This document shows positions 1 to 9,782 of a stretch of 11,293 bases of DNA, one piece after another. The notes below the pieces were generated by a model. That model ran no database searches. It was not told the DNA's origin and was given only the letters and a program-made list of their open reading frames with translations. Numbering within the stretch: position 1 is the stretch's first letter; each line of letters starts with the position of its first letter. The translations under genes were made by a program, and so were the position numbers. The stretch is from a virus (lineage: Duplodnaviria > Heunggongvirae > Uroviricota > Caudoviricetes), in IMG/VR virus record IMGVR_UViG_2703718818_000011; one strand, 5' to 3'.

Positions 1-653
1 GTGTTGGTGCGCACCGGCACTATTTGCGGTCCCGCTAATACTATGGGTATGCGCCCCGGTGTTATTCGTGGATTTGGTTCCGTAATCAAACGACGATGTG
101 GTTTTCGTCCCCAAATCCGTACTGGATGCGCTGGCGCTGTGGGTGTGCGATTTAATGCCGTCCTGTTCCTGAGACAATACGGCCCGACCACTGGCAGGTT
201 TGCCCTTAATCGTCCAGCCACGCATATCAGGGATCACGCCTGACGGATAAGCGGCTGCAAGTTTCGGGTAAGCAGATTTGTCAAAAGTCTGCCCCTGCAT
301 CAGGGCATAACCAGACGGAACGGTATCTGATGGCCACGGGATTGGTGCGCCGACTGGGTAGCTTTCTGGTGGAAGATTTTTCGAGGTATAAACTTCTGCC
401 CAGCCTTCCTCAAAACCATAACCGTCTCTTGAAGAACGGTAGAACAGACCACCATTTCTGTAATGCGCCTTCATCTGCAGGGTCCGGCAACTTCCGACTC
501 CGGTATAGAAGTTAACCAGAATATAGCTGTCGCCAGAGCGGGTGACATTGTAAGCGCCTGATTCGGCATTCCAGGGAACGCCACCATCCGCATCGGCATA
601 TGTATCCGTTGCCCTTCTGGCAAAAGCAGCCACATGCGCGGCGGTTAAAGTAA

Positions 654-849
654 TATCTTTGGAACCATCAAATGGAACACCGGATATTTTTCTTGCAGTC
701 TGGAGTTTTGTAGCAGTTGCAGCATTACCAGTGGTGTTCTGATTACCCGTAGTGTTTACACCTGGAAGGTTAATATTTGCAGAACCGTCGAAAACAACTC
801 CACCGATAGATCTTGCCGTCTGCAATTTCGTGGCTGTACTTGCATTACC
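654..849 (-). repeat. Imperfect tandem duplication inside stf, two ~75-bp copies about 118 bp apart, encoding a repeated ~25-aa fibre motif (..[21 protein letters not shown])
   Basis: Copy at ~654-729 (…ttttgtagcagttgcagcattacc) and copy at ~772-849 (…tttcgtggctgtacttgcattacc) are visibly similar on the plus strand; both translate on the minus strand to near-identical peptide motifs. Confidence 0.55.
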
Positions 850-1539
850 ATTCAATGAACCAGTTAATCCACCTGTAACAGACAACGGACCTGAAACTGT
901 TCCTCCGGTTGTTGGCAGTGCTCCAATATCTGATGGTGTAGGTTTCTGATGTGAGCTATACATCGTATAAACAACACCATAGGTAACGCTGGAAGGCTTA
1001 CTCGCTGAATATGTTGGCGAGGTATAAACAGAAACTGACGCATTTGCAGTACAATCCCAATGGATATTTACACTCGTCGCATAATTGCCAATCTCAACGT
1101 AAATATCATATGTATCGCCGGATGTGTTGATCCAGGCGAAATTCGTTAATCCGACGGCTGTACGCTTCCACAAAGCCCCGGTAATTCCTTTGGGGTTTCC
1201 ATTGCCTGCTCGTAGAACCAGTTCTGAAATGCCTGCCTGATGTGGGGAACCGACGTTGTAACCAGCGCCACCAATCAATGCGATGTAAACGATGGAACTC
1301 GCTTGTGGCATGGTAACCGTAGCCAGTTTGAACCACCCAGCCCCGCCAGAGAAAGACATCGTTACTGAATTTAAAGTACCAATATCTTTCGGCGTTAATG
1401 TTATATCCGCAGTCAGTGCTTTTCCGTTAACTTTTCGGTTAGATGGCACCCTGCTATTCGCATTGTCATTGGCTGCTTTAACTGCTTTTGGCGTTGCGGC
1501 CAGCGATTCACTGGTGCTATCAACAGCACTGCTAAGTTT

Positions 1540-2480
1540 CACAACACCTTTAGTTGTAAGGCTTGCGTCTTCCATCGCAACTGCACCGGCAATCTCTTCA
1601 GCACGATCAGCAGCAGCTTCCGCACGGGTCGCAGCGGATTCAGCAGTAGTTTTGCTCTGAGATGCCGCCGTCGCACTGCCAGCTGCCTCTGTCGCCTTCG
1701 TGGATGCTGTCGTGGCGCTGCCTTTCGCTGCTGATGCCTGTCTGCTCGCCTCATCTTTTGAAGCAGACGCAGATGATGCCGATGACGCCGCCGAACTGGC
1801 GGACGATGCAGCTGCCATTTTTGAGGATTCTGCACTGGTTTCCGAGGCTTTCGCGTTCGTTTCGGATGTCTTCGCTGCGGATGCAGACCTCGCTGCTGCG
1901 CTGGCCTGTTCAGCGGCTTCGCCAGCCTTCGTTGTGGCTGTTGAAGCAGACGATGCGGCGCTTTCTGCCGATTTTCCGGCGGCGGTGGCACTGGCTGAGG
2001 CCTGCCCGGCACTTGTTGACGCGGCACTGGCAGACGACGCAGCCGCTGTTTTTGAGCCTGCCGCAGCCGAGGCGCTCTGTCCCGCTGCCGTTTCAGAAGA
2101 CCTGGCGTTTGTCTCAGACGTCTTTGCCGCCTTCGCGGAATTGCCTGCCGCCGTTGCCGAGGAAGCGGCACTACTGGCGCTTGATGATGCGTTCGTTTCT
2201 GATGATTTCGCTGCCTCTTTTGAGGCCGCCGCATCCCGGGCTGAGGTGGCTGCTTCTGACGCCTTCGTGGTCGCGGCGGATGCAGAAGTGGCTGCTGATT
2301 GTTGTGACGCTGCCGCATTCGTTTCTGACGTTTTCGCCGCACCGGCACTGGTAGCTGCCGCGCTTTTTGAGGACTCTGCAGCAGCAGCACTTTTTGCTGC
2401 TTCACGGGCCTTTGTCGATGCCGTTCCTGCGCTGGAAGACGCTGACTGAGCCGACGACGCGGCCTGTCCGGCTGACGTGC
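1540..2480 (-). repeat. Low-complexity Ala/Ser/Thr-rich repeat region of the tail fibre shaft, with a 9-aa motif AAK(T/S)SETNA recurring four times
   Basis: The 26-nt units gcgttcgtttcggatgtcttcgctgc (~1853), gcgtttgtctcagacgtctttgccgc (~2105), gcgttcgtttctgatgatttcgctgc (~2189) and gcattcgtttctgacgttttcgccgc (~2315) are all reverse complements of AAK(T/S)SETNA codons. This strong compositional bias produces long spurious ORFs in several frames. Confidence 0.6.
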
Positions 2481-3372
2481 TGGCGGCACGTGCTGAGCCT
2501 GCAGCATCGGTTATTACCACTTCCCGGATCGCTATACGCTATTCCGTTAAAGATAATGGGCGGAATAATGATTTGACGGTCAAAGTTATGATCATCGCTG
2601 ATGGTGACTGTAACCGTCCCGTTTGGTGTTTCCGTATTACCCCACGTACCAGCCTGTTTCGGGAATGATTTGGATACAGCTTTAACGAAGTCACCTCTGA
2701 CCTGAGTCGCCTCCAGCATGCCCTTAATCGTACAGTTTTCATTTACCGTGACATTGTTGAGCGTCCCGGCGTTCGCATTCACACTGCCACTGATATCCGC
2801 ATTTTTAGCGGTCAGCTTTCCGTCCGGTGTCAGGGAAAATGCCGGTGGATTTCCACCGCTGGTAATGGTGGGGGCCGTCAGGCGTTTCAGGAACACGTCG
2901 TTCATGAATATCTGATCGCCCTGACCAACAAACATCGGTTTTGTGTTGCCATTCGCAGGATTAACCATCGCAATCCTGTCCGCCGCCAGCAGCACCTGAC
3001 TCTGCATGCCGTCAGGGGTGTTCTCAATATCCACGATGGCCTCTTTTTCCGGTACATGCTGCACGGCGGTGATGGCATACGTGCCGTCGTCGTTCTCACG
3101 GATACTCACGCAGCGGAACAGGCGCTGGCGCAACGTCGGCAGCTTCAGCCCCCATACGCTGTATTCAGCAACGCCGTCAGGAACACGGCTCACTTTCACC
3201 TTCACGCCGTCGGTGACGGACTGAACCTCCACGCTGACCGGACTCCCCTGCCCGTCAACCAGGCTTATCAGCGTGGTGCCGGAAGATGGCAGCGTGATTT
3301 CACGGTCGAGCGTCAGCGTCCGGGTCTGGCTGTTTACCGCCAGCACGCGCCCGCCGGTGCGGATACCCAAGC
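2402..3372 (-). pseudogene. J: Internal/C-proximal fragment of host-specificity (central tail fibre) protein J, with no native start and reading out of frame into stf
   Basis: The ORF translation [113 protein letters not shown] ... [63 protein letters not shown] is near-identical to two blocks of the second half of lambda J as remembered. The 'start' at 3370 is a TTG inside the J frame; the ORF ends ...[15 protein letters not shown]...KGP in the wrong frame of the stf Ala-rich region. Confidence 0.8.
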
Positions 3373-3588
3373 TGGAGTGGCGAACGTTTTACCCTTGCTG
3401 ATGAGGTATTCACTGATTTCGCTGTACCACATGTGGCTGAGTGCATTCTGGGAAAGACTGCGTCTCTCGCGCCACGGTTTAAGCACCATGCGAAAGCATT
3501 TGCCGTCCTCCAGATAAGGCTGGATCTGCCGACCGATAGCGGTGAAGTTACCGCGATGCAATTTGATACCATCTTGTGGGAGGTTCAC
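3363..3588 (-). pseudogene. ninB: N-terminal fragment (~75 codons) of a NinB/YbcN-family protein, truncated at a deletion junction with J'
   Basis: Translation [75 protein letters not shown] carries the RSL-x-QN motif remembered from lambda NinB (..ERNRSLDQNRKLWACLGDVS..). The start is GTG at 3588. After ..TPAWV the frame reads a few junk codons (SAPAGACWR) and stops, while J homology begins in another frame at the same position. Confidence 0.5.
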
Positions 3589-3782
3589 GCTTCACCTCCG
3601 CAGAGATCAAACGCTGGATGCAAAATATCGCAGGTGCATTTCTGCATCTGTGAATGGAGAAGAGAGGTTGGATTGTATGTGCGCATAAACGTCCCCGTTT
3701 AGCGCAGAAGTCACCGGAGTTGTTCAGGCCCCAATGGCATGATTATGGCTGGTTGATTATTGGAAATCAAATGTGCTGAAAA

Positions 3783-4292
3783 TTAGTCTGCCAAGTCTTC
3801 CTCAGTCGCAACTGGGTAATTCCAAATATCAAAAAAAGCTATAGCCTCCTGCCATTTGCTCCATAAGTTATCAAGTACTTGTGTAGGTTCCGTACTTTTA
3901 AAAACAGAATCAGCCGCATCACCGTTATGAACTTCCTCGTACAGTTCCATTATTAGCAGATTAACAAAGTACTGTTTCAACATTAATGCCTGATTACCTT
4001 CTTTCTGCTGGCTATCCTGCTTGATGATCTCCATCGCCCGTACTAGGCACCTGATGATATCCGCTGCATCATTAACGCTCCATTCAGATCCGCGCTTATC
4101 TTTAGCTGATGAATTGGCTCTCTCAGCGCAAGCCTTTAAAGACTCATAAAGGTAAACTCTATTTTGTAGCTGCAGCGCTTTTTTTGACGTGTACCAACTT
4201 GCAAGCGCCGACCCCGCTGCGGCTAATGTGCCAAACGCAGAAATACCTGCTGCTATTGCACTTAAGTCGGCACTGTCAAAGTTCCACATCAT
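3783..4292 (-). CDS. Hypothetical protein, 169 aa, with a predicted single N-terminal transmembrane helix followed by a soluble, charged, helical-looking domain; function unknown
   Basis: Complete ORF with ATG start and an AAGGTG Shine-Dalgarno about 7 nt upstream. Residues ~10-33 (LSAIAAGISAFGTLAAAGSALASWY) are hydrophobic. The gene is AT-rich relative to the phage backbone, has its own upstream region after a terminator, and does not match any protein I recognise. Confidence 0.55.
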   Translation of the reverse strand: MMWNFDSADLSAIAAGISAFGTLAAAGSALASWYTSKKALQLQNRVYLYESLKACAERANSSAKDKRGSEWSVNDAADIIRCLVRAMEIIKQDSQQKEGNQALMLKQYFVNLLIMELYEEVHNGDAADSVFKSTEPTQVLDNLWSKWQEAIAFFDIWNYPVATEEDLAD

Positions 4293-4321
4293 CGTTACAC
4301 CTTATATAAATACCCCTCAGT

Positions 4322-4350
4322 AATATCCAATAAGGTATGTGCACAATCAA
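4322..4350 (-). promoter_or_regulatory. Candidate sigma70-type promoter for the 169-aa gene (minus-strand -35 TTGATT, 17-nt spacer, -10 GATATT)
   Basis: Minus-strand sequence reads TTGATTgtgcacataccttattgGATATTactgaggggtatttatatAAGGTGtaacgATG. Hexamer match only; not validated. Confidence 0.25.
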
Positions 4351-4468
4351 TATAATTTTATCCGTATCGGCACATAGCGATTTGAACGCTACTGGTAATG
4401 GTATATTTTAGATTATATCGTCCAGTTTACAGCACCCGTATTTTATGAAATGGACTCGCATATTACCC

Positions 4469-4507
4469 AAAAAATGCCAGCACTTCCGTCATCGTAGAAT
4501 GCTGGCA
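4469..4507 (-). terminator. Rho-independent terminator on the minus strand downstream of the 99-aa ORF (end of the ybcK-side transcript)
   Basis: Inverted repeat tgccagca (4475-4482) / tgctggca (4500-4507) with a 17-nt loop, followed on the minus strand by a run of six T (plus-strand A-run 4469-4474). Confidence 0.5.
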
Positions 4508-4550
4508 GTATTTCTAACTAGTGACTTTATTGGAACAGATTCTGACGGAA

Positions 4551-4850
4551 TTATGGTAACACTCGACTCCACTTATCATCCAGCCACGGCTGGAATTTTA
4601 CATGTGCCGTTTCTCTGGCGAGGATTGCTCGCGCTCTGTTGAGTATCTGGGGATATTCTTGCTCGATAGAAGTAAAGCGGCCGGCTTCGCGGTGCTCCGC
4701 AACCTGAAGTAGTGGAGTAACGTTCTGGCAGGCAGTTAACATCACATCACCTGCTCGCCATAACCAAGCACGTGCACAAAGTTTGTTATCAGTGAATTGT
4801 TTTGTGATTGGGTATTGTTGAACTGCTAGAACGAGAACGCCAGCATCCAT
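4551..4850 (-). CDS. Hypothetical protein, 99 aa, unknown function; possibly co-transcribed with ybcK
   Basis: Complete ATG-initiated ORF 111 bp downstream of ybcK on the same strand, followed by the terminator at 4469-4507. GC content is closer to the host/phage backbone than to ybcK. No recognisable motif and only a weak ribosome-binding site, so it may be a gene fragment. Confidence 0.4.
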   Translation of the reverse strand: MDAGVLVLAVQQYPITKQFTDNKLCARAWLWRAGDVMLTACQNVTPLLQVAEHREAGRFTSIEQEYPQILNRARAILARETAHVKFQPWLDDKWSRVLP

Positions 4851-4961
4851 TGGCAGTCCCTATAGTAAAACCATAGCTCAGGACGCTTCGTTCAGGATAG
4901 ATAATTTTATTGTACTTACCTAACTTTCTTACTATAGCACGGTTGAAAAAGTGATTATTAC

Positions 4962-6488
4962 TCAAAAATAAACCTCACCATCAACCATATATTTGAGAGT
5001 ACTTATCGCCTGCTGGGCGGATATTGTTTTCATTAAAGGATAGTGTTTAAAAACAATGCCATTCATAAAATAGATATCACAGGTTTTATTATCTGTATTG
5101 ATTATGATTTTTTCGAATGTTTTATAGGCAAGTGTACGACATAGCTCTCGCCCATTTTTACTGGTTAAGTCAATAGCATGAAAATCACCAAGTGAACTCA
5201 CCGCTTTACTCTTCAAAGTTTTTAATGATACAGAAGCCCTTCGTAATTCCTTATCTAATACTCTGATTTTTTCTGCTATAGCGGTAACTTCAGGCGCAAC
5301 AGATAATGCAGCAATTAAATTATTAATTTTCATCTGGAGCTCAATAATTTTCAACTCTAAAGTTTCATTAGCATCTTTCTTGTTTTCAACTGGTTGGATT
5401 TTACTACAATTAAAAAGCAACTCATTAATGATATTATAATCAACCAAATCTCTCTTTATTGATGGCCTGTCACATCGATGCAGTCTTCTCATCGGACAAA
5501 CATAATAGCCATGCAAACTTCCAGATACCGCATGAACAATCATGGTATTACCACAAGCCTCGCACTTCATAACTGTTCGAAGTAGATTTATCAACATAGG
5601 ATTTTTGCTACTATTGCTAATACCAAAAGGTGCCAACCGAATTTCCTGCACAGCGTAAAACAAATCATCTGATATGACTCTGGGATAATAGCCAGCGATT
5701 TCACTTATTCCTTTACCTCTTGCACGATATGAAGGTACGCATATACCTATCAGAGCTTTATTCGCTAATAATTTTTCAATTACAGAAGGTCCCCATGCAC
5801 TTTCTTTTCCTGAGAAATTCTTTACAGCATGATCATTTAAATACTTGGCTATTGCATTCAATGAGCGCCTTTCCATCCTGAGTTTAAAAATTAGCTCAAT
5901 AGTTTTCACCCTGTCGGGGTCTGGAACAAAAGCCGTTCTTTTGTCATCCAATGAGAGCCATCTCGGACAAGACGCCGTCATAATCGTGCCTGACTCCAGT
6001 GCATCCTGCCGTTTTTTCTTCCATGATAATTTAACCCGACTTGACTTTATCTCGCTTTCTTCATTTGCCCTTTGTGCTATAAGTATGGCTTTTATTAATG
6101 AATATGGCTCATTCAATGAGTCAATATTATAGACTGTATTATCGCAAAGAGTTATAACATCAATACCGTGATTCAAAATCAATTTCAGACGCTCAATCGC
6201 CTCACCGACTTTTTCTCTTGAAAGTCTGTCCAGACTTTCAACTAACAATGTAGTCCCTGGCAATATATAACCATGTTCTATAGCATCTAAAAATTCCGAA
6301 AAAGCTCCTGATTGTGCATGCTTTCCATTGAATGCGCTTAACCCCAAATCTTCATACGTTACGGTATCAAGGTAATAATCACTATTTACCTTTAGCCATT
6401 CAGTAATAAGCCTTCTCTGGCGGTTTAATGAATCACCAGACATCTGACTTGGTGATGAAAATCGCATATATGCTATGGCTTTTTTCAT
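4962..6488 (-). CDS. ybcK: Large serine recombinase (resolvase/invertase-type catalytic domain, recombinase domain, Cys-rich zinc-ribbon-like segment), YbcK-like
   Basis: 508-aa ORF. The N-terminus AIAYMRFSSPSQ carries the serine-recombinase catalytic serine motif, with ..LVESLDRLSR.. following. A Cys cluster (CEACGNTMIVH...YYVCPMRRLHRCD) lies in the C-terminal half. Length and position next to emrE match K-12 DLP12 YbcK as remembered. The gene is strongly AT-rich, with an AT-rich 255-bp upstream region. Confidence 0.85.
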   Translation of the reverse strand: MKKAIAYMRFSSPSQMSGDSLNRQRRLITEWLKVNSDYYLDTVTYEDLGLSAFNGKHAQSGAFSEFLDAIEHGYILPGTTLLVESLDRLSREKVGEAIERLKLILNHGIDVITLCDNTVYNIDSLNEPYSLIKAILIAQRANEESEIKSSRVKLSWKKKRQDALESGTIMTASCPRWLSLDDKRTAFVPDPDRVKTIELIFKLRMERRSLNAIAKYLNDHAVKNFSGKESAWGPSVIEKLLANKALIGICVPSYRARGKGISEIAGYYPRVISDDLFYAVQEIRLAPFGISNSSKNPMLINLLRTVMKCEACGNTMIVHAVSGSLHGYYVCPMRRLHRCDRPSIKRDLVDYNIINELLFNCSKIQPVENKKDANETLELKIIELQMKINNLIAALSVAPEVTAIAEKIRVLDKELRRASVSLKTLKSKAVSSLGDFHAIDLTSKNGRELCRTLAYKTFEKIIINTDNKTCDIYFMNGIVFKHYPLMKTISAQQAISTLKYMVDGEVYF

Positions 6489-6743
6489 GGTGACACCTGC
6501 TAAAGTATGCTTTTATAAACCTTAGTGGTGAGATATGATTTTTGTTTAATTTTTATTTAAAAAGACAATTAAGGTCACATTATCTTGAATATACAACAAT
6601 AATCGTATTGCAATTTTCTTACACCATAATCTTGAAAGCACAAAAGAATGAATAAAAACTAAAGACATTAACAAAAAGCATAAAACGAGGCCCATATAAA
6701 TATACGAGCCTCCATATTTTAGTCGTTTAAAAACAAATTATTT

Positions 6744-7076
6744 TTAATGTGGTGTGCTTCGTGACAATAAATTAATAACCAACACACCGGCACAAATCAA
6801 CATCATGCCTATAATGGCTGGCAGGTCCAACCGTTGGCCGAAAAATCCCCATGATAGTAAGCTAATCAGGACAATACCGACTCCTGACCAGATAGCATAA
6901 GCAATCCCTGTAGGAATATAAGCCAGCGTCTGAGCTAATAACCAGAATGATGCACAATAACAAATAATTGTACCAACAGATGGCCATAACCGTGTAAAAC
7001 CTTCTGAAAACTTCATTAAGGTTGTACCAATGACCTCTGCAAGTATTGCACCACCAAGATAAATATAAGGATTCAT
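6744..7076 (-). CDS. emrE: Small multidrug resistance (SMR) family efflux transporter EmrE, 110 aa
   Basis: Translation MNPYIYLGGAILAEVIGTTLMKFSEGFTRLWPSVGTIICYCASFWLLAQTLAYIPTGIAYAIWSGVGIVLISLLSWGFFGQRLDLPAIIGMMLICAGVLVINLLSRSTPH matches E. coli EmrE essentially residue for residue as remembered. The true start is the ATG at 7076 with an AGGAAAG ribosome-binding site; the 128-aa track ORF starts at an upstream in-frame ATG. Confidence 0.95.
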   Translation of the reverse strand: MNPYIYLGGAILAEVIGTTLMKFSEGFTRLWPSVGTIICYCASFWLLAQTLAYIPTGIAYAIWSGVGIVLISLLSWGFFGQRLDLPAIIGMMLICAGVLVINLLSRSTPH

Positions 7077-7091
7077 AGCATATTCTTTCCT

Positions 7092-7126
7092 GTTCAAACT
7101 GGAGAGAATTGTACTACAGTTTGAAC
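7092..7126. promoter_or_regulatory. Perfect 10-bp inverted repeat (gttcaaactg / cagtttgaac, 15-nt spacer) between ren and emrE, directly upstream of the emrE ribosome-binding site
   Basis: Positions 7092-7101 and 7117-7126 are exact reverse complements. No T-run follows on the minus strand, so it is more likely an operator, RNA structure or module-boundary hairpin than a canonical terminator. Confidence 0.5.
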
Positions 7127-7143
7127 TCAACTCACCTGTTTCA

Positions 7144-7446
7144 TCATTGTGTACCCATTGATGTTCTTTTATATACCCTCAATACCCGTTTCATCGCGGC
7201 ACTCTGGCGACACTCCTTAAAAATCAAATTCGTGCTCACCTTTCCTTCCCATTCTTCTCTGGTAGCGAACCGATAATACACCGTTCGCCAGACCTTACCA
7301 TCAACGACTAGGATTCCTGCCCGCGCCATTTTAGCCGCAGCCTGATTTATGCTGGTTACCGTTGCGCCTGTTACCGCGGCAACGTCCTGCGCACAGAATT
7401 TCTTATGAGTCCCCAGGTAATGAATAATTGACTCTTTGCCCGTCAT
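7144..7446 (-). CDS. ren: Ren-like protein (lambda ren homologue), 100 aa
   Basis: Translation MTGKESIIHYLGTHKKFCAQDVAAVTGATVTSINQAAAKMARAGILVVDGKVWRTVYYRFATREEWEGKVSTNLIFKECRQSAAMKRVL... is very similar to lambda Ren as remembered. Its ATG overlaps the stop of P (ATGA), as in lambda. Confidence 0.85.
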   Translation of the reverse strand: MTGKESIIHYLGTHKKFCAQDVAAVTGATVTSINQAAAKMARAGILVVDGKVWRTVYYRFATREEWEGKVSTNLIFKECRQSAAMKRVLRVYKRTSMGTQ

Positions 7447-8144
7447 ACCCTTGCTCCTTTCAGCCCAAACTTAGCTTTGATTTCTGCGATCTTCGCCAGA
7501 GCCTGTGCACGATTTAGAGGTCTACCGCCCATGACAGGAAGTTGTTTTACTGGTTCAGGTATAGCCTCACCACGGTTAATTCGTGCGGTCATACAGGACA
7601 GTTCATCGGCAGCCTTGCGCCGTAATTCCGCGTCAGTCAACGCATTGGCCCGCATGTTCTGATACAGGTTGGTAACCAGCCAGTAGTGCGCGTTTGATTT
7701 CCACGGATAAGACTCTGCATCCGGATACAGCCCGCGCTTCCGGCAATACTCGTAAACCATATCAACCAGCTCGCTGGCGTTTGGCAGCCCGGCGGTAACG
7801 GATGCTTCTTCCCGGCACCAGGCGACAAACTGCCCGGGTGATGGCAGGAATGGTCGATTCTGCCGACGGGCTACGCGCATTCCAGCGTTAACCTGTTCCA
7901 TTGTGGTGATCCCGTTTTCCCGAAAAGCCAGCACCCACTGGCGGCGGATTTCGTTCAGTTCATTCTGGTCACGGTTAGCCAGGCTCGCCGGGAAAGTTGC
8001 CAGTAACTGGCTGAACACACCGTTGATGATCTGCGCTACCTGCTGTACCTGTGGCTTTTCGTCGTACTGTTCCGGCATGTTGTTGGCGATCCGACGCATC
8101 TGCTCACGGTCAAAGTTAACCATCTGTGCGGCGATGTTTTTCAT
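7443..8144 (-). CDS. P: Lambda-type replication protein P (DnaB helicase loader), full length, 233 aa
   Basis: Translation MKNIAAQMVNFDREQMRRIANNMPEQYDEKPQVQQVAQIINGVFSQLLATFPASLANRDQNELNEIRRQWVLAFRENGITTMEQVNAGMRVARRQNRPFLPSPGQFVAWCREEASVTAGLP... is near-identical to lambda P as remembered, with the same length. Confidence 0.9.
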   Translation of the reverse strand: MKNIAAQMVNFDREQMRRIANNMPEQYDEKPQVQQVAQIINGVFSQLLATFPASLANRDQNELNEIRRQWVLAFRENGITTMEQVNAGMRVARRQNRPFLPSPGQFVAWCREEASVTAGLPNASELVDMVYEYCRKRGLYPDAESYPWKSNAHYWLVTNLYQNMRANALTDAELRRKAADELSCMTARINRGEAIPEPVKQLPVMGGRPLNRAQALAKIAEIKAKFGLKGARV

Positions 8145-8395
8145 AGATCCACCCCGTAAATCCAGTCAGTGTTTGTCAGGTCGAGTTTTGGTTTGCCGAC
8201 TGTCACGCCAGCCTGTTGCTTGTTCCGGTTGATTTCGAGCTGGGTCCACTTGTCGCGGAGTTTGGCCGGACTCAGCACGTTACCGGACCAGAAGTTGTCC
8301 TGGCAGGCCCAGCGGAACAGTACACACATGTCGCGGTGGTTACGTCCATCACGTTCACGCATCAGACGGATATCGTTAGGCGCGATCACTTTCGT
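8141..8395 (-). pseudogene. O: C-terminal fragment (~83 codons) of replication initiator O; the N-terminal origin-binding part and the ori iterons are absent
   Basis: Translation ...IAPNDIRLMRERDGRNHRDMCVLFRWACQDNFWSGNVLSPAKLRDKWTQLEINRNKQQAGVTVGKPKLDLTNTDWIYGVDL matches the P-interacting C-terminus of lambda O as remembered, overlapping the P start. The frame is closed by an in-frame TAG just upstream (~8396-8398). Confidence 0.65.
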
Positions 8396-8503: not shown

Positions 8504-9568
8504 ATGAGTCAGGTTGGTAATCATTCATTCGAATTTCCGGCATCGCAAGGTGTACAGGGTGGTACTGTTACACTCTTCCTTACCATACCAGGAAGATCGC
8601 TGGCTCGTTTCCTCGCTTCAGATAATTACGGCCATACACTGGAACGCTCTCAGCGAGAAATTAATCCAAATCGAGTACGAAAATTTTTAAATTATCTCAC
8701 TAACGCAGACTCAAGAAATGAGCCTTTTATCATTCCCCCTCTCGTAGGTAACTGTGATTCGAATATAGAATTTGTACCGTTTGGCAACACAAATGTTGGT
8801 ATAGCCAGAATTCCCCTCGACGCCGAAATAAAACTTTTTGATGGTCAACATCGTGCAGCTGGCATTGAGATATTTTGCCGAAGTTCCCCATCAACGCTCA
8901 TGGTTCCCATGATGCTTACAATGAATCTGCCGCTAAAAACCCGGCAGCAGTTCTTTTCGGACATAAATAACAACGTTTCTAAGCCATCAGCGACCATCAA
9001 TATGGCGTATAACGGCCGGGATGATATTGCTCAGGGAATGATATCCTTCCTGACCCAACATACTGTATTTGCCGATATAACCGATTTTGAACACAACGTA
9101 GTGCCATTAAAAAGTAATATGTGGGTGAGTTTCAAGGCACTCACTGATGCAACGTCAAAGTTCGCTAGGAACGGCAATCAACAACTTGAAATGGGATATA
9201 TAGAATCTGTCTGGGAGGCATGGATTACACTAACTCAGATTGACTCAATCCGACATGGTGTACACCACGCTACGTACAAGCGCGATTATATTCAGTTCCA
9301 TGGAGTAATGATTAACGCTTTCGGTTTTGCGGTTCAACAGATGATGGTTAATCATTCCATCGCAGAAATAACTTCTATGATCGAAAAACTATGTGCAACT
9401 ACCAGCTCTGCAGAAAGAGAGGATTTTTTTCTGATGGATAACTGGGCGGGGATCTGCACGAAAGCCAGCCAGGAAAAACTATCTGTTATTGCCAATGTGG
9501 CAGCGCAGAAAGCAGCAGCAAACAGACTGATACAAGCTTTTACCAAAGGAAGTCTGGAAACAACTTAA
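8504..9568 (+). CDS. DGQHR-motif protein (DndB-like family), 354 aa; orphan, with no dnd/dpd partner genes in the window
   Basis: Complete ORF with a strong Shine-Dalgarno (AGGAGG at 8494-8499) and ATG at 8504. The protein contains the diagnostic motif ..EIKLFDGQHRAAGIE.. at about residues 108-121, and its size is in the DndB range. It is AT-rich relative to the flanking P/O' and xis/int, and is followed by a hairpin plus T-run. Confidence 0.75.
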   Translation: MSQVGNHSFEFPASQGVQGGTVTLFLTIPGRSLARFLASDNYGHTLERSQREINPNRVRKFLNYLTNADSRNEPFIIPPLVGNCDSNIEFVPFGNTNVGIARIPLDAEIKLFDGQHRAAGIEIFCRSSPSTLMVPMMLTMNLPLKTRQQFFSDINNNVSKPSATINMAYNGRDDIAQGMISFLTQHTVFADITDFEHNVVPLKSNMWVSFKALTDATSKFARNGNQQLEMGYIESVWEAWITLTQIDSIRHGVHHATYKRDYIQFHGVMINAFGFAVQQMMVNHSIAEITSMIEKLCATTSSAEREDFFLMDNWAGICTKASQEKLSVIANVAAQKAAANRLIQAFTKGSLETT

Positions 9569-9669: not shown

Positions 9670-9782
9670 ATTAATCGGACTTGTGCAAGTTGCCAGGAGG
9701 AGATCGAACTTAAGAACAAACAATGGGGACTGTGATGGCTTCAAAGCAGCAAATTTCAACATCGTCCAACTGAGGTGTAAAA

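Follow-up and report, generated by a model that had tools for sequence, protein, structure and literature searches.

An out-of-frame J'-stf' joint, very probably a microhomology-mediated deletion scar, in a defective lambdoid prophage at icd of Escherichia coli

The DNA analyzed here (the window, a stretch of 11,293 nucleotides taken as a whole from IMG/VR record IMGVR_UViG_2703718818_000011) belongs to a defective lambdoid prophage of E. coli inserted at icd, the e14 attachment site. The gene order of the element starts from icd with int, xis, DUF4222, a DndB-like (DGQHR) gene, O', P, ren, emrE, and ybcK, and proceeds through P22AR-C, two small open reading frames, ybcN', J', stf', tfa, an mcrB-like ATPase gene, and mcrC to icd', next to iraM. 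Q, the late promoter, and the lysis, head, and tail-shaft genes are all missing from the element. What it has lost is shown by comparison with a near-complete relative at the same site in W284, which carries bet/exo/gam, repressor genes, O, P, ybcN, ninE, rusA, and quuD and further holds a porin gene, lysis genes, terminase, portal, and more. Every relevant gene of the region discussed below lies on the minus strand, and a search against Rfam at gathering thresholds returned no RNA family in the whole window.

As a reference for the tail genes we used the intact J-lom-stf block of E. coli NCTC9008 (L002), in which stf lies at 3869-7147, lom at 7212-7811, and J at 7881-11378, all on the minus strand. 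BLAST against this block places window 1-2512 on L002 4202-6713 (99.2% identity over 2,512 bases) and window 2509-3029 on L002 8126-8646 (100% identity, 521/521 nt). The joint between the two segments (junction A) occupies 2509-2512, with stf DNA at 2512 and below and J DNA at 2509 and above, as given by direct reading, alignment, and BLAST coordinates alike; its four bases are a microhomology common to both parents, GGTT on the plus strand and AACC in gene orientation. When the letters are read out, the stf parent gives ..CTGCAGCATCGGTT/GCATGAG.. and the J parent ..CCTCCCGGGTT/ATTACCACTTCC.., and across the joint the window runs ..CTGCAGCATCGGTTATTACCACTTCC... Relative to the intact block, as found in NCTC9008 and in phage phi458, the window lacks 1,416 bp, comprising J codons ~1085-1165 (~81 codons) and the J stop codon, the J-lom spacer, all of lom, the lom-stf spacer, and stf codons 1-145. 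The absence of lom had been proposed in the original prediction, which was made from the sequence without database searches, and it is borne out: this gene for an Ail/Lom outer membrane protein (L002 7212-7811) lies wholly within the 1,416 bp that the window lacks, and BLAST against the NCTC9008 block found no lom sequence between the J' and stf' frames. A hairpin at the joint was considered and dropped, the parental J sequence showing no more than a weak 5-bp stem (CCGGG/CCCGG).

The placement of the joint in the original prediction needs correction. J-like sequence had been taken to end at FDRQIIIPP and to be followed by ~30 codons of filler before stf begins. Only lambda's own J allele diverges at FDRQIIIPP, where its different receptor-binding domain starts; alignment and BLAST both give zero filler codons, J DNA directly abutting stf DNA at 2509-2512, 16 codons further on than had been claimed. 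The segment that had seemed divergent is residues 1069-1084 of a non-lambda J allele of 1165 residues and is identical to NCTC9008 J. It had also been entertained that a J variant could genuinely terminate with this segment, an ordinary intergenic region and a complete fibre gene coming next, in which case there would be no scar at all. The first half of this idea stands, as the segment is genuinely J-variant sequence, but the second half fails, as 81 further J codons follow GSGNN in the intact allele, whereas in the window the very next base belongs to stf codon 146, and the N-terminal collar domain of Stf (PF08400), lom, and a start codon for the fibre gene are all absent from the window. 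We therefore assign a natural J terminus next to no probability.

The two remnants are read in different frames, as had been predicted. The J-like frame is open on the minus strand from 3388 to 2405 and is closed by a TGA at 2404-2402 that lies in stf DNA, the predicted termination at 2402 inside stf; by the open reading frame list and direct reading, its out-of-frame tail (2402-2508, minus strand) consists of 35 nonsense codons derived from stf. The stf' frame, offset from that of J' by one base, is open on the minus strand from 2538 to window base 1, where it runs off the left edge. On its 5' side it is closed by a TAG in J-derived DNA (2539-2541, minus strand), after which translation yields nine codons (RIAIREVVI) up to the joint, none of them ATG. 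In NCTC9008 coordinates the parental J and stf frames are offset by 11378 - 7147 = 4231 = 3 x 1410 + 1, and because the parent frames differ by one base and the missing segment is a whole number of codons (1,416 = 3 x 472), J' and stf' stay out of frame with each other.

No plausible start serves the stf' frame. Its first ATG is codon 241 (window 1818), the next is at 1575, and others lie further downstream; ahead of codon 241, as far back as the TAG, the frame offers a single start-type codon, GTG 2520, which sits within J-derived DNA. A search of starts in this frame gave no convincing Shine-Dalgarno match for GTG 2520, ATG 1818, or ATG 1575. The start that PGAP assigns to stf' differs by assembly (ATA 2535 in Z1323CEC0014, ATG 1818 in ML35 and E2, and ATG 1575 in NCTC9100), which shows how arbitrary any choice of start is. 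Translational coupling from J', which the original prediction had offered as a route to residual fibre expression, is implausible because 584 bases separate the J' stop from the next in-frame stf start (ATG 1818), and there is nothing to couple to: J' is itself start-less and out of frame with ybcN', and the late operon is gone. A consensus scan of 1500-4500 yielded a single promoter-like site (3770-3742, upstream of ybcN'), fewer than in shuffled sequence, and no terminator-like site on the minus strand at 2300-2600. Read over 2402-2541, the region does not fit a programmed ribosomal frameshift or recoded fusion, which would take a translated upstream frame and a shift site between the two: J' lacks a native start and is fused out of frame to ybcN', and J'-Stf' recoding would need a +1 shift. 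Opposite the Ala/Ser-rich stf shaft, an antisense open reading frame (1700-2449, plus strand) is annotated by PGAP as a "hypothetical protein" at 1712-2449, a call that is repeated in the annotation of phage phi458; most likely it arises incidentally from the GCN-rich repeat without being a gene.

Protein alignment assigns stf' (1-2512, minus strand), a side tail fibre gene truncated at its 5' end, to codons 146-982 of a 1092-codon Stf, and the gene continues past the left edge of the window to its native stop. The product is identical to residues 146-982 of NCTC9008 Stf at 834/837 positions (99.6%), with no frameshift or internal stop anywhere in this range, so that the check for frameshifts suggested along with the original prediction came back clean. 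Its register is that of K-12 StfR, with 98% identity over residues 206-370, and in NCTC9100, E2, and Z1323CEC0014 the frame runs for 955-956 codons to ..NYIVRLA and a stop. Pfam places PF08400 (phage_tail_N, the N-terminal collar) on residues 1-134 of the intact NCTC9008 Stf (7.6e-70) and finds no match to it in the stf' product of the window, in which the distal Collar domain PF07484 is kept (4.4e-12). A fibre frame with neither start nor N-terminal domain had been anticipated, and with no ATG before codon 241, no PF08400, and an alignment that begins only at residue 146, this is what we observe. Compared with intact members of the Stf/StfR family, stf' thus has the shaft, the distal Collar/fibre-repeat region, and the cognate tfa immediately downstream, and lacks the collar/attachment domain; nor does it have a start of its own, preceded by a ribosome-binding site, in a late operon after lom. 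The tfa gene lies beyond the window and is annotated as intact directly after stf' in ML35, NCTC9100, E2, and Z1323CEC0014. In Ur-lambda, Stf residues 1-91 form a twelve-copy collar round the gpV/gpM junction that attaches the side fibres, and residues 92-101 form a linker (PMC12617516). With the PF08400 collar lost, any product of stf' would therefore be without a means of attaching to the tail.

On the other side of the joint, J' is made up of two fragments. The distal fragment (2509-3029, minus strand) covers J residues 912-1084 of 1165, is identical to NCTC9008 J at 173/173 amino acids as well as at every nucleotide, and includes a portion of the tail-tip domain and, of the C-terminal receptor-binding domain, the first half. 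The proximal fragment (3028-3367, minus strand) covers J residues 488-600, with 92% amino acid identity to NCTC9008 J and 91% to lambda J, and window 3028-3369 is identical at 342/342 nt to the J' of a Qin-type remnant (L007). Between them lies junction B (3028-3029), an in-frame 933-bp gap within J (residues 601-911 missing) with a 2-bp TA microhomology. The two pieces flanking it have different nearest alleles; separate source prophages for the two were considered and dropped as indistinguishable from an ordinary mosaic J allele. In Pfam searches J' matches positions 41-138 of 139 of the Phage_Tail_Tip profile and 1-71 of 135 of Ig_GpJ_C and no other J domains, whereas intact J matches all six (FNIII-A, Phage-tail_3, two Ig_J, Phage_Tail_Tip, and Ig_GpJ_C); with residues 1-487, 601-911, and 1085-1165 missing, the full domain series of J, the tip attachment and host specificity protein, is not present. 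At its 5' end J', which has no native start, is joined out of frame to a truncated ybcN at junction C (3364-3367), where the microhomology is TACC. This ybcN' (NinB/YbcN family; 3334-3588, minus strand) runs into 10 out-of-frame J codons and stops at 3334, the intact gene in W284 having 151 codons; PGAP lists it as a pseudogene in ML35, NCTC9100, and E2, and both J' and ybcN' are pseudogenes in the PGAP/RefSeq annotation of the assemblies examined. Junction C marks the loss of the whole late region, from ninE through Q, the lysis, head, and tail genes, to the 5' 487 codons of J. Three deletion scars (A, B, and C) are thus found within 900 bp, each on 2-4 bp of microhomology, with no insertion sequence end or remnant and no inverted repeat at any of them.

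The scar is genuine and inherited. When 5,426 complete E. coli genomes were searched with a 101-bp probe that spans the joint, 17 covered it over its full length and the rest matched only its J half or only its stf half; junctions B and C are carried by the same 17. Sixteen of these carriers have at least 80% of the window in one place at 98.5-100% identity, and at least 95% of it among the matches listed; ML35 agrees with the window over 1-8048 and diverges beyond. An assembly or sequencing artefact, that is, a collapsed repeat or mis-join in the Ala/Ser-rich region, might come to mind for a gene with a repetitive shaft and for prophage tail genes that are multicopy (a median of three places per genome), but the same joint recurs in 17 complete genomes from different laboratories and platforms, it sits in unique sequence with matches of 100% and 99.2% on its flanks, and PGAP independently flags a pseudogene, which leaves this explanation with a negligible chance of being right. 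Many prophages have the 3.9-kb block intact, as do phi458 and ~10 other isolated phages, e.g., PhiR34_1, Kati, and ev099, and the widespread occurrence of the intact block identifies the event as a deletion.

We conclude with high confidence that junction A was left by a microhomology-mediated deletion in this defective lambdoid prophage at icd. The ancestral order would have been J-lom-stf-tfa, as it is in NCTC9008 and in phages such as phi458, and one illegitimate (or slipped) recombination between two GGTT tetranucleotides would have removed the 1,416 bp. Such an event would leave a J' that reads nonsense and then stops, and a stf' without start codon, ribosome-binding site, or collar domain. 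Both remnants are probably silent, and neither should be able to contribute to a virion, because the late genes and late promoter are lost, J' is a start-less double fragment, and stf' has neither start nor collar. The feature is ordinary prophage decay, already annotated. In E. coli, decaying prophages normally end up with tail genes that are truncated and fused, and the locus provides a clean, fully resolved case of stepwise prophage erosion. There is also a lesson for annotation, in that stf' is called an intact "phage tail protein" and the antisense frame opposite it a "hypothetical protein"; both calls should be treated as artefacts.

Two other routes to the joint were considered and set aside. 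A crossover by a Pin/Gin-type invertase was suggested by the resemblance of GGTT to the gix/cix core; on direct reading neither parent resembles the full 26-bp site, and no invertase gene lies next to stf. The other was an adjacent deletion mediated by an insertion sequence, of which neither an end nor a remnant was found at any of the three joints. Nothing in the data speaks against a deletion. The microhomology on which the deletion mechanism is founded measures only 4 bp. The same J-side breakpoints turn up in further genomes, joined there to other partners, something that purely random breakage would not lead one to expect.

One carrier bears on the later history of the locus. Z1323CEC0014 has an identical junction A and differs from the window at 114 positions over window 1-3700, with the mismatches in patches on both sides of the joint and with mismatch-free stretches at 1101-1600, 2501-2700, and 3401-3700. 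Its stf' is ~3% divergent, keeps the frame open for 956 codons, and shows 59 synonymous versus 27 non-synonymous codon differences. Because the mismatches are patchy and are present in the dead J' too, they point to gene conversion from other prophage copies and not to selection on the stf' copy. Lambda recombines with the stf/tfa genes of the defective prophages Rac and Qin at about 2x10^-6 (PMC3945230), which fits the patchy exchange in this strain. We infer that the remnant is non-coding DNA still engaged in homologous exchange, a dead stf'-tfa cassette that still swaps sequence patches with other prophages. The sole plausible residual role is accordingly a passive one, with stf'-tfa DNA serving as homologous donor or recipient in exchange with lambdoid prophages and infecting phages.

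A rival reading is that the remnant is still expressed and useful, be it as an internally initiated Stf fragment working with the Tfa chaperone, as a +1 recoded J'-Stf' chimera (acting, e.g., in receptor masking or exclusion), or as an stf'-tfa cassette kept by selection for incoming phages. We regard this as highly improbable. In its favour, three alleles keep the stf' frame open for ~956 codons, as far as the native stop, and one of the three is ~3% divergent with the excess of synonymous changes just given, but that excess is patchy, extends into the dead J', and looks imported by gene conversion from functional alleles. An intact tfa is annotated downstream and defective-prophage stf/tfa genes do recombine with lambda (PMC3945230), yet there is no start or Shine-Dalgarno sequence near the joint, the first ATG (codon 241) has no Shine-Dalgarno match, the late promoter, Q, and the collar domain are absent together with the start of J', and one strain has lost nearly all of stf' without obvious consequence.

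The breakpoints in J merit separate comment. The J' of Z1323HEC0011 runs at window 2512/2513 straight into the final ~125 bp of stf, this time in frame (..GSGN/IGAHTHS..RLA and a stop), a joint found in just one of the 5,426 genomes; it implies a further deletion of ~2.7 kb with a J-side end within 4 bp of junction A. Also missing from this strain is a stretch of ~250 bp of J' that lay between two copies of CGGATAC, one of them adjoining the ybcN' joint. A second independent joint so close to junction A, together with a holin'-J' joint that in the Qin-type remnants of many genomes uses exactly the same J base as the ybcN'-J' joint, and a full-length serine recombinase (YbcK) 2.5 kb away, could indicate that the positions in J at window 2512 and 3367 are break-prone or recombinase-targeted sites that are re-used, for example by YbcK or through a former insertion sequence. 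We consider such targeting very unlikely, as the joints share no motif past their 2-6 bp microhomologies and have neither insertion sequence remnants nor inverted repeats, the second deletion in Z1323HEC0011 is accounted for by a plain 7-bp CGGATAC direct repeat, and the observation was made post hoc on few genomes. For ybcN, the 6-bp TACCCA lying across an older holin'-J' joint offers an explanation: if the ancestor of the window carried that joint, a later ybcN deletion could have used these six bases across it. That the J breakpoints at 2512 and 3367 are re-used, break-prone sites and not random ends strikes us as very unlikely. If it were true, further rearrangement would preferentially start from old prophage-remnant joints or from certain sequences in J and, in combination with the patchy allele exchange of one strain, remnants of this kind would be active nodes in the shuffling of tail genes.

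Several known systems resemble the deletion scar at junction A in part. The intact J-lom-stf-tfa modules of phi458, PhiR34_1, Kati, ev099, and the NCTC9008 prophage share 94-100% nucleotide identity with the window on both sides of the joint; unlike the window, they hold the missing 1,416 bp and the 933 bp inside J, and their reading frames are complete. The Qin-type holin'-J'-lom'-stf' remnant at ydfJ (e.g., in strain EC21Z-078) has J cut at exactly this 5' base (residue 488) and, with its genes annotated as pseudogenes, also records the deletion of a late operon, but it joins J' to a truncated holin, retains J to its natural end and part of lom, and lies at another locus. In K-12, the lomR::IS5-stfR-tfaR region of Rac and the stf/tfa remnants of e14 and Qin also keep the distal fibre end after loss of head and tail genes. 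The window Stf' shaft is 98% identical to StfR in the same register, and integration at icd is shared with e14; in contrast to the window, the stfR of Rac retains its full length, start and N-terminal domain included, and its lomR has not been deleted but is interrupted by IS5. Lambda PaPa, finally, offers a lambdoid stf (orf-401/orf-314) inactivated by a reading-frame lesion beside an intact tfa, leaving the phage with no side tail fibres. There the frameshift splits an otherwise complete gene, the start and collar are kept, and the phage is viable, whereas the window lacks 1,416 bp that include the start, the collar, lom, and the J 3' end, and its host element is no viable phage. Lambda, too, has an antisense open reading frame, orf206b, annotated opposite the Ala/Ser-rich shaft of orf-401.

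Within J' itself, 933 bp (residues 601-911) are missing in frame at window 3028-3029, with TA microhomology at the joint. The piece of J' on one side of this gap is 100% identical to the J of NCTC9008, a strain with an intact J-lom-stf region, and 91% identical to the Qin-type J, whereas the piece across the gap shows the opposite pattern, being closer to the Qin-type J than to that of NCTC9008; window 3028-3369 matches the Qin-type J' at 342 of 342 positions. At window 3364-3369, J is truncated at exactly the base used in the Qin-type remnants that many genomes carry at ydfJ (for example, L007, from EC21Z-078, at 6330-6345). The partner of J' in those remnants is a truncated holin, whereas in the window it is ybcN, and the 6-bp TACCCA that spans the Qin-type holin/J' joint also matches ybcN.

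Other strains carry variants of the element. In Z1323HEC0011 (L004 7990-8010; window equivalent 2512-2513), the last ~42 stf codons are fused in frame to J' (..GSGN/IGAHTHS..RLA, then a stop), with the J-side breakpoint at most 4 bp from the J'/stf' joint of the window; this in-frame joint was found in a single strain among 5,426 genomes. Z1323CEC0014 (L008) has, over the equivalent of window 1-3700, the three joints of the window together with 114 patchy mismatches in stf' and J', a pattern indicating that, since the deletions, gene conversion has exchanged sequence between this element and other copies of prophages. In ML35 (L001 14644-15748; window about 8048), the element is cut off within P and joined to a baseplate gene (YmfQ family) from an e14-like prophage, so that the block from stf'-J'-ybcN' to ren is embedded, still at icd, in the backbone of a different prophage.

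Compared with both the carrier strain NCTC9100 and W284, a near-complete relative at icd, the window also lacks two stretches: at 8377-8378, 677 bp comprising DUF1317 and most of a gene of the lambda exonuclease family, and at 9673-9674, 207 bp that hold the 5' part of a gene of the TraR/DksA family. Only the 3' end of replication gene O is left (O', 8141-8389), adjoining the exo remnant, and the immunity region present in the W284-type relative is missing, as are its bet/gam genes. Sixteen complete genomes match the window over 80% or more of its length, and in every one of them the match is broken into at least three separate pieces.

The early-left region encodes a DndB-family (DGQHR) protein of 354 aa (8504-9568, plus strand), with no other dnd genes visible within the window. 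Between ybcN' and the P22AR-C gene lies a 169-aa ORF (3783-4292, minus strand) with no Pfam match, a position occupied by ybcL/ybcM in K-12 DLP12 and by a different hypothetical gene (309 aa) in W284. In the PGAP annotation, a "hypothetical protein" (WP_033801682.1; 1712-2449, within an ORF at 1700-2449, plus strand) lies antisense to the Ala/Ser-rich shaft of stf. Three long ORFs overlap there in other frames, and the antisense ORF is probably a compositional artefact, analogous to lambda orf206b.
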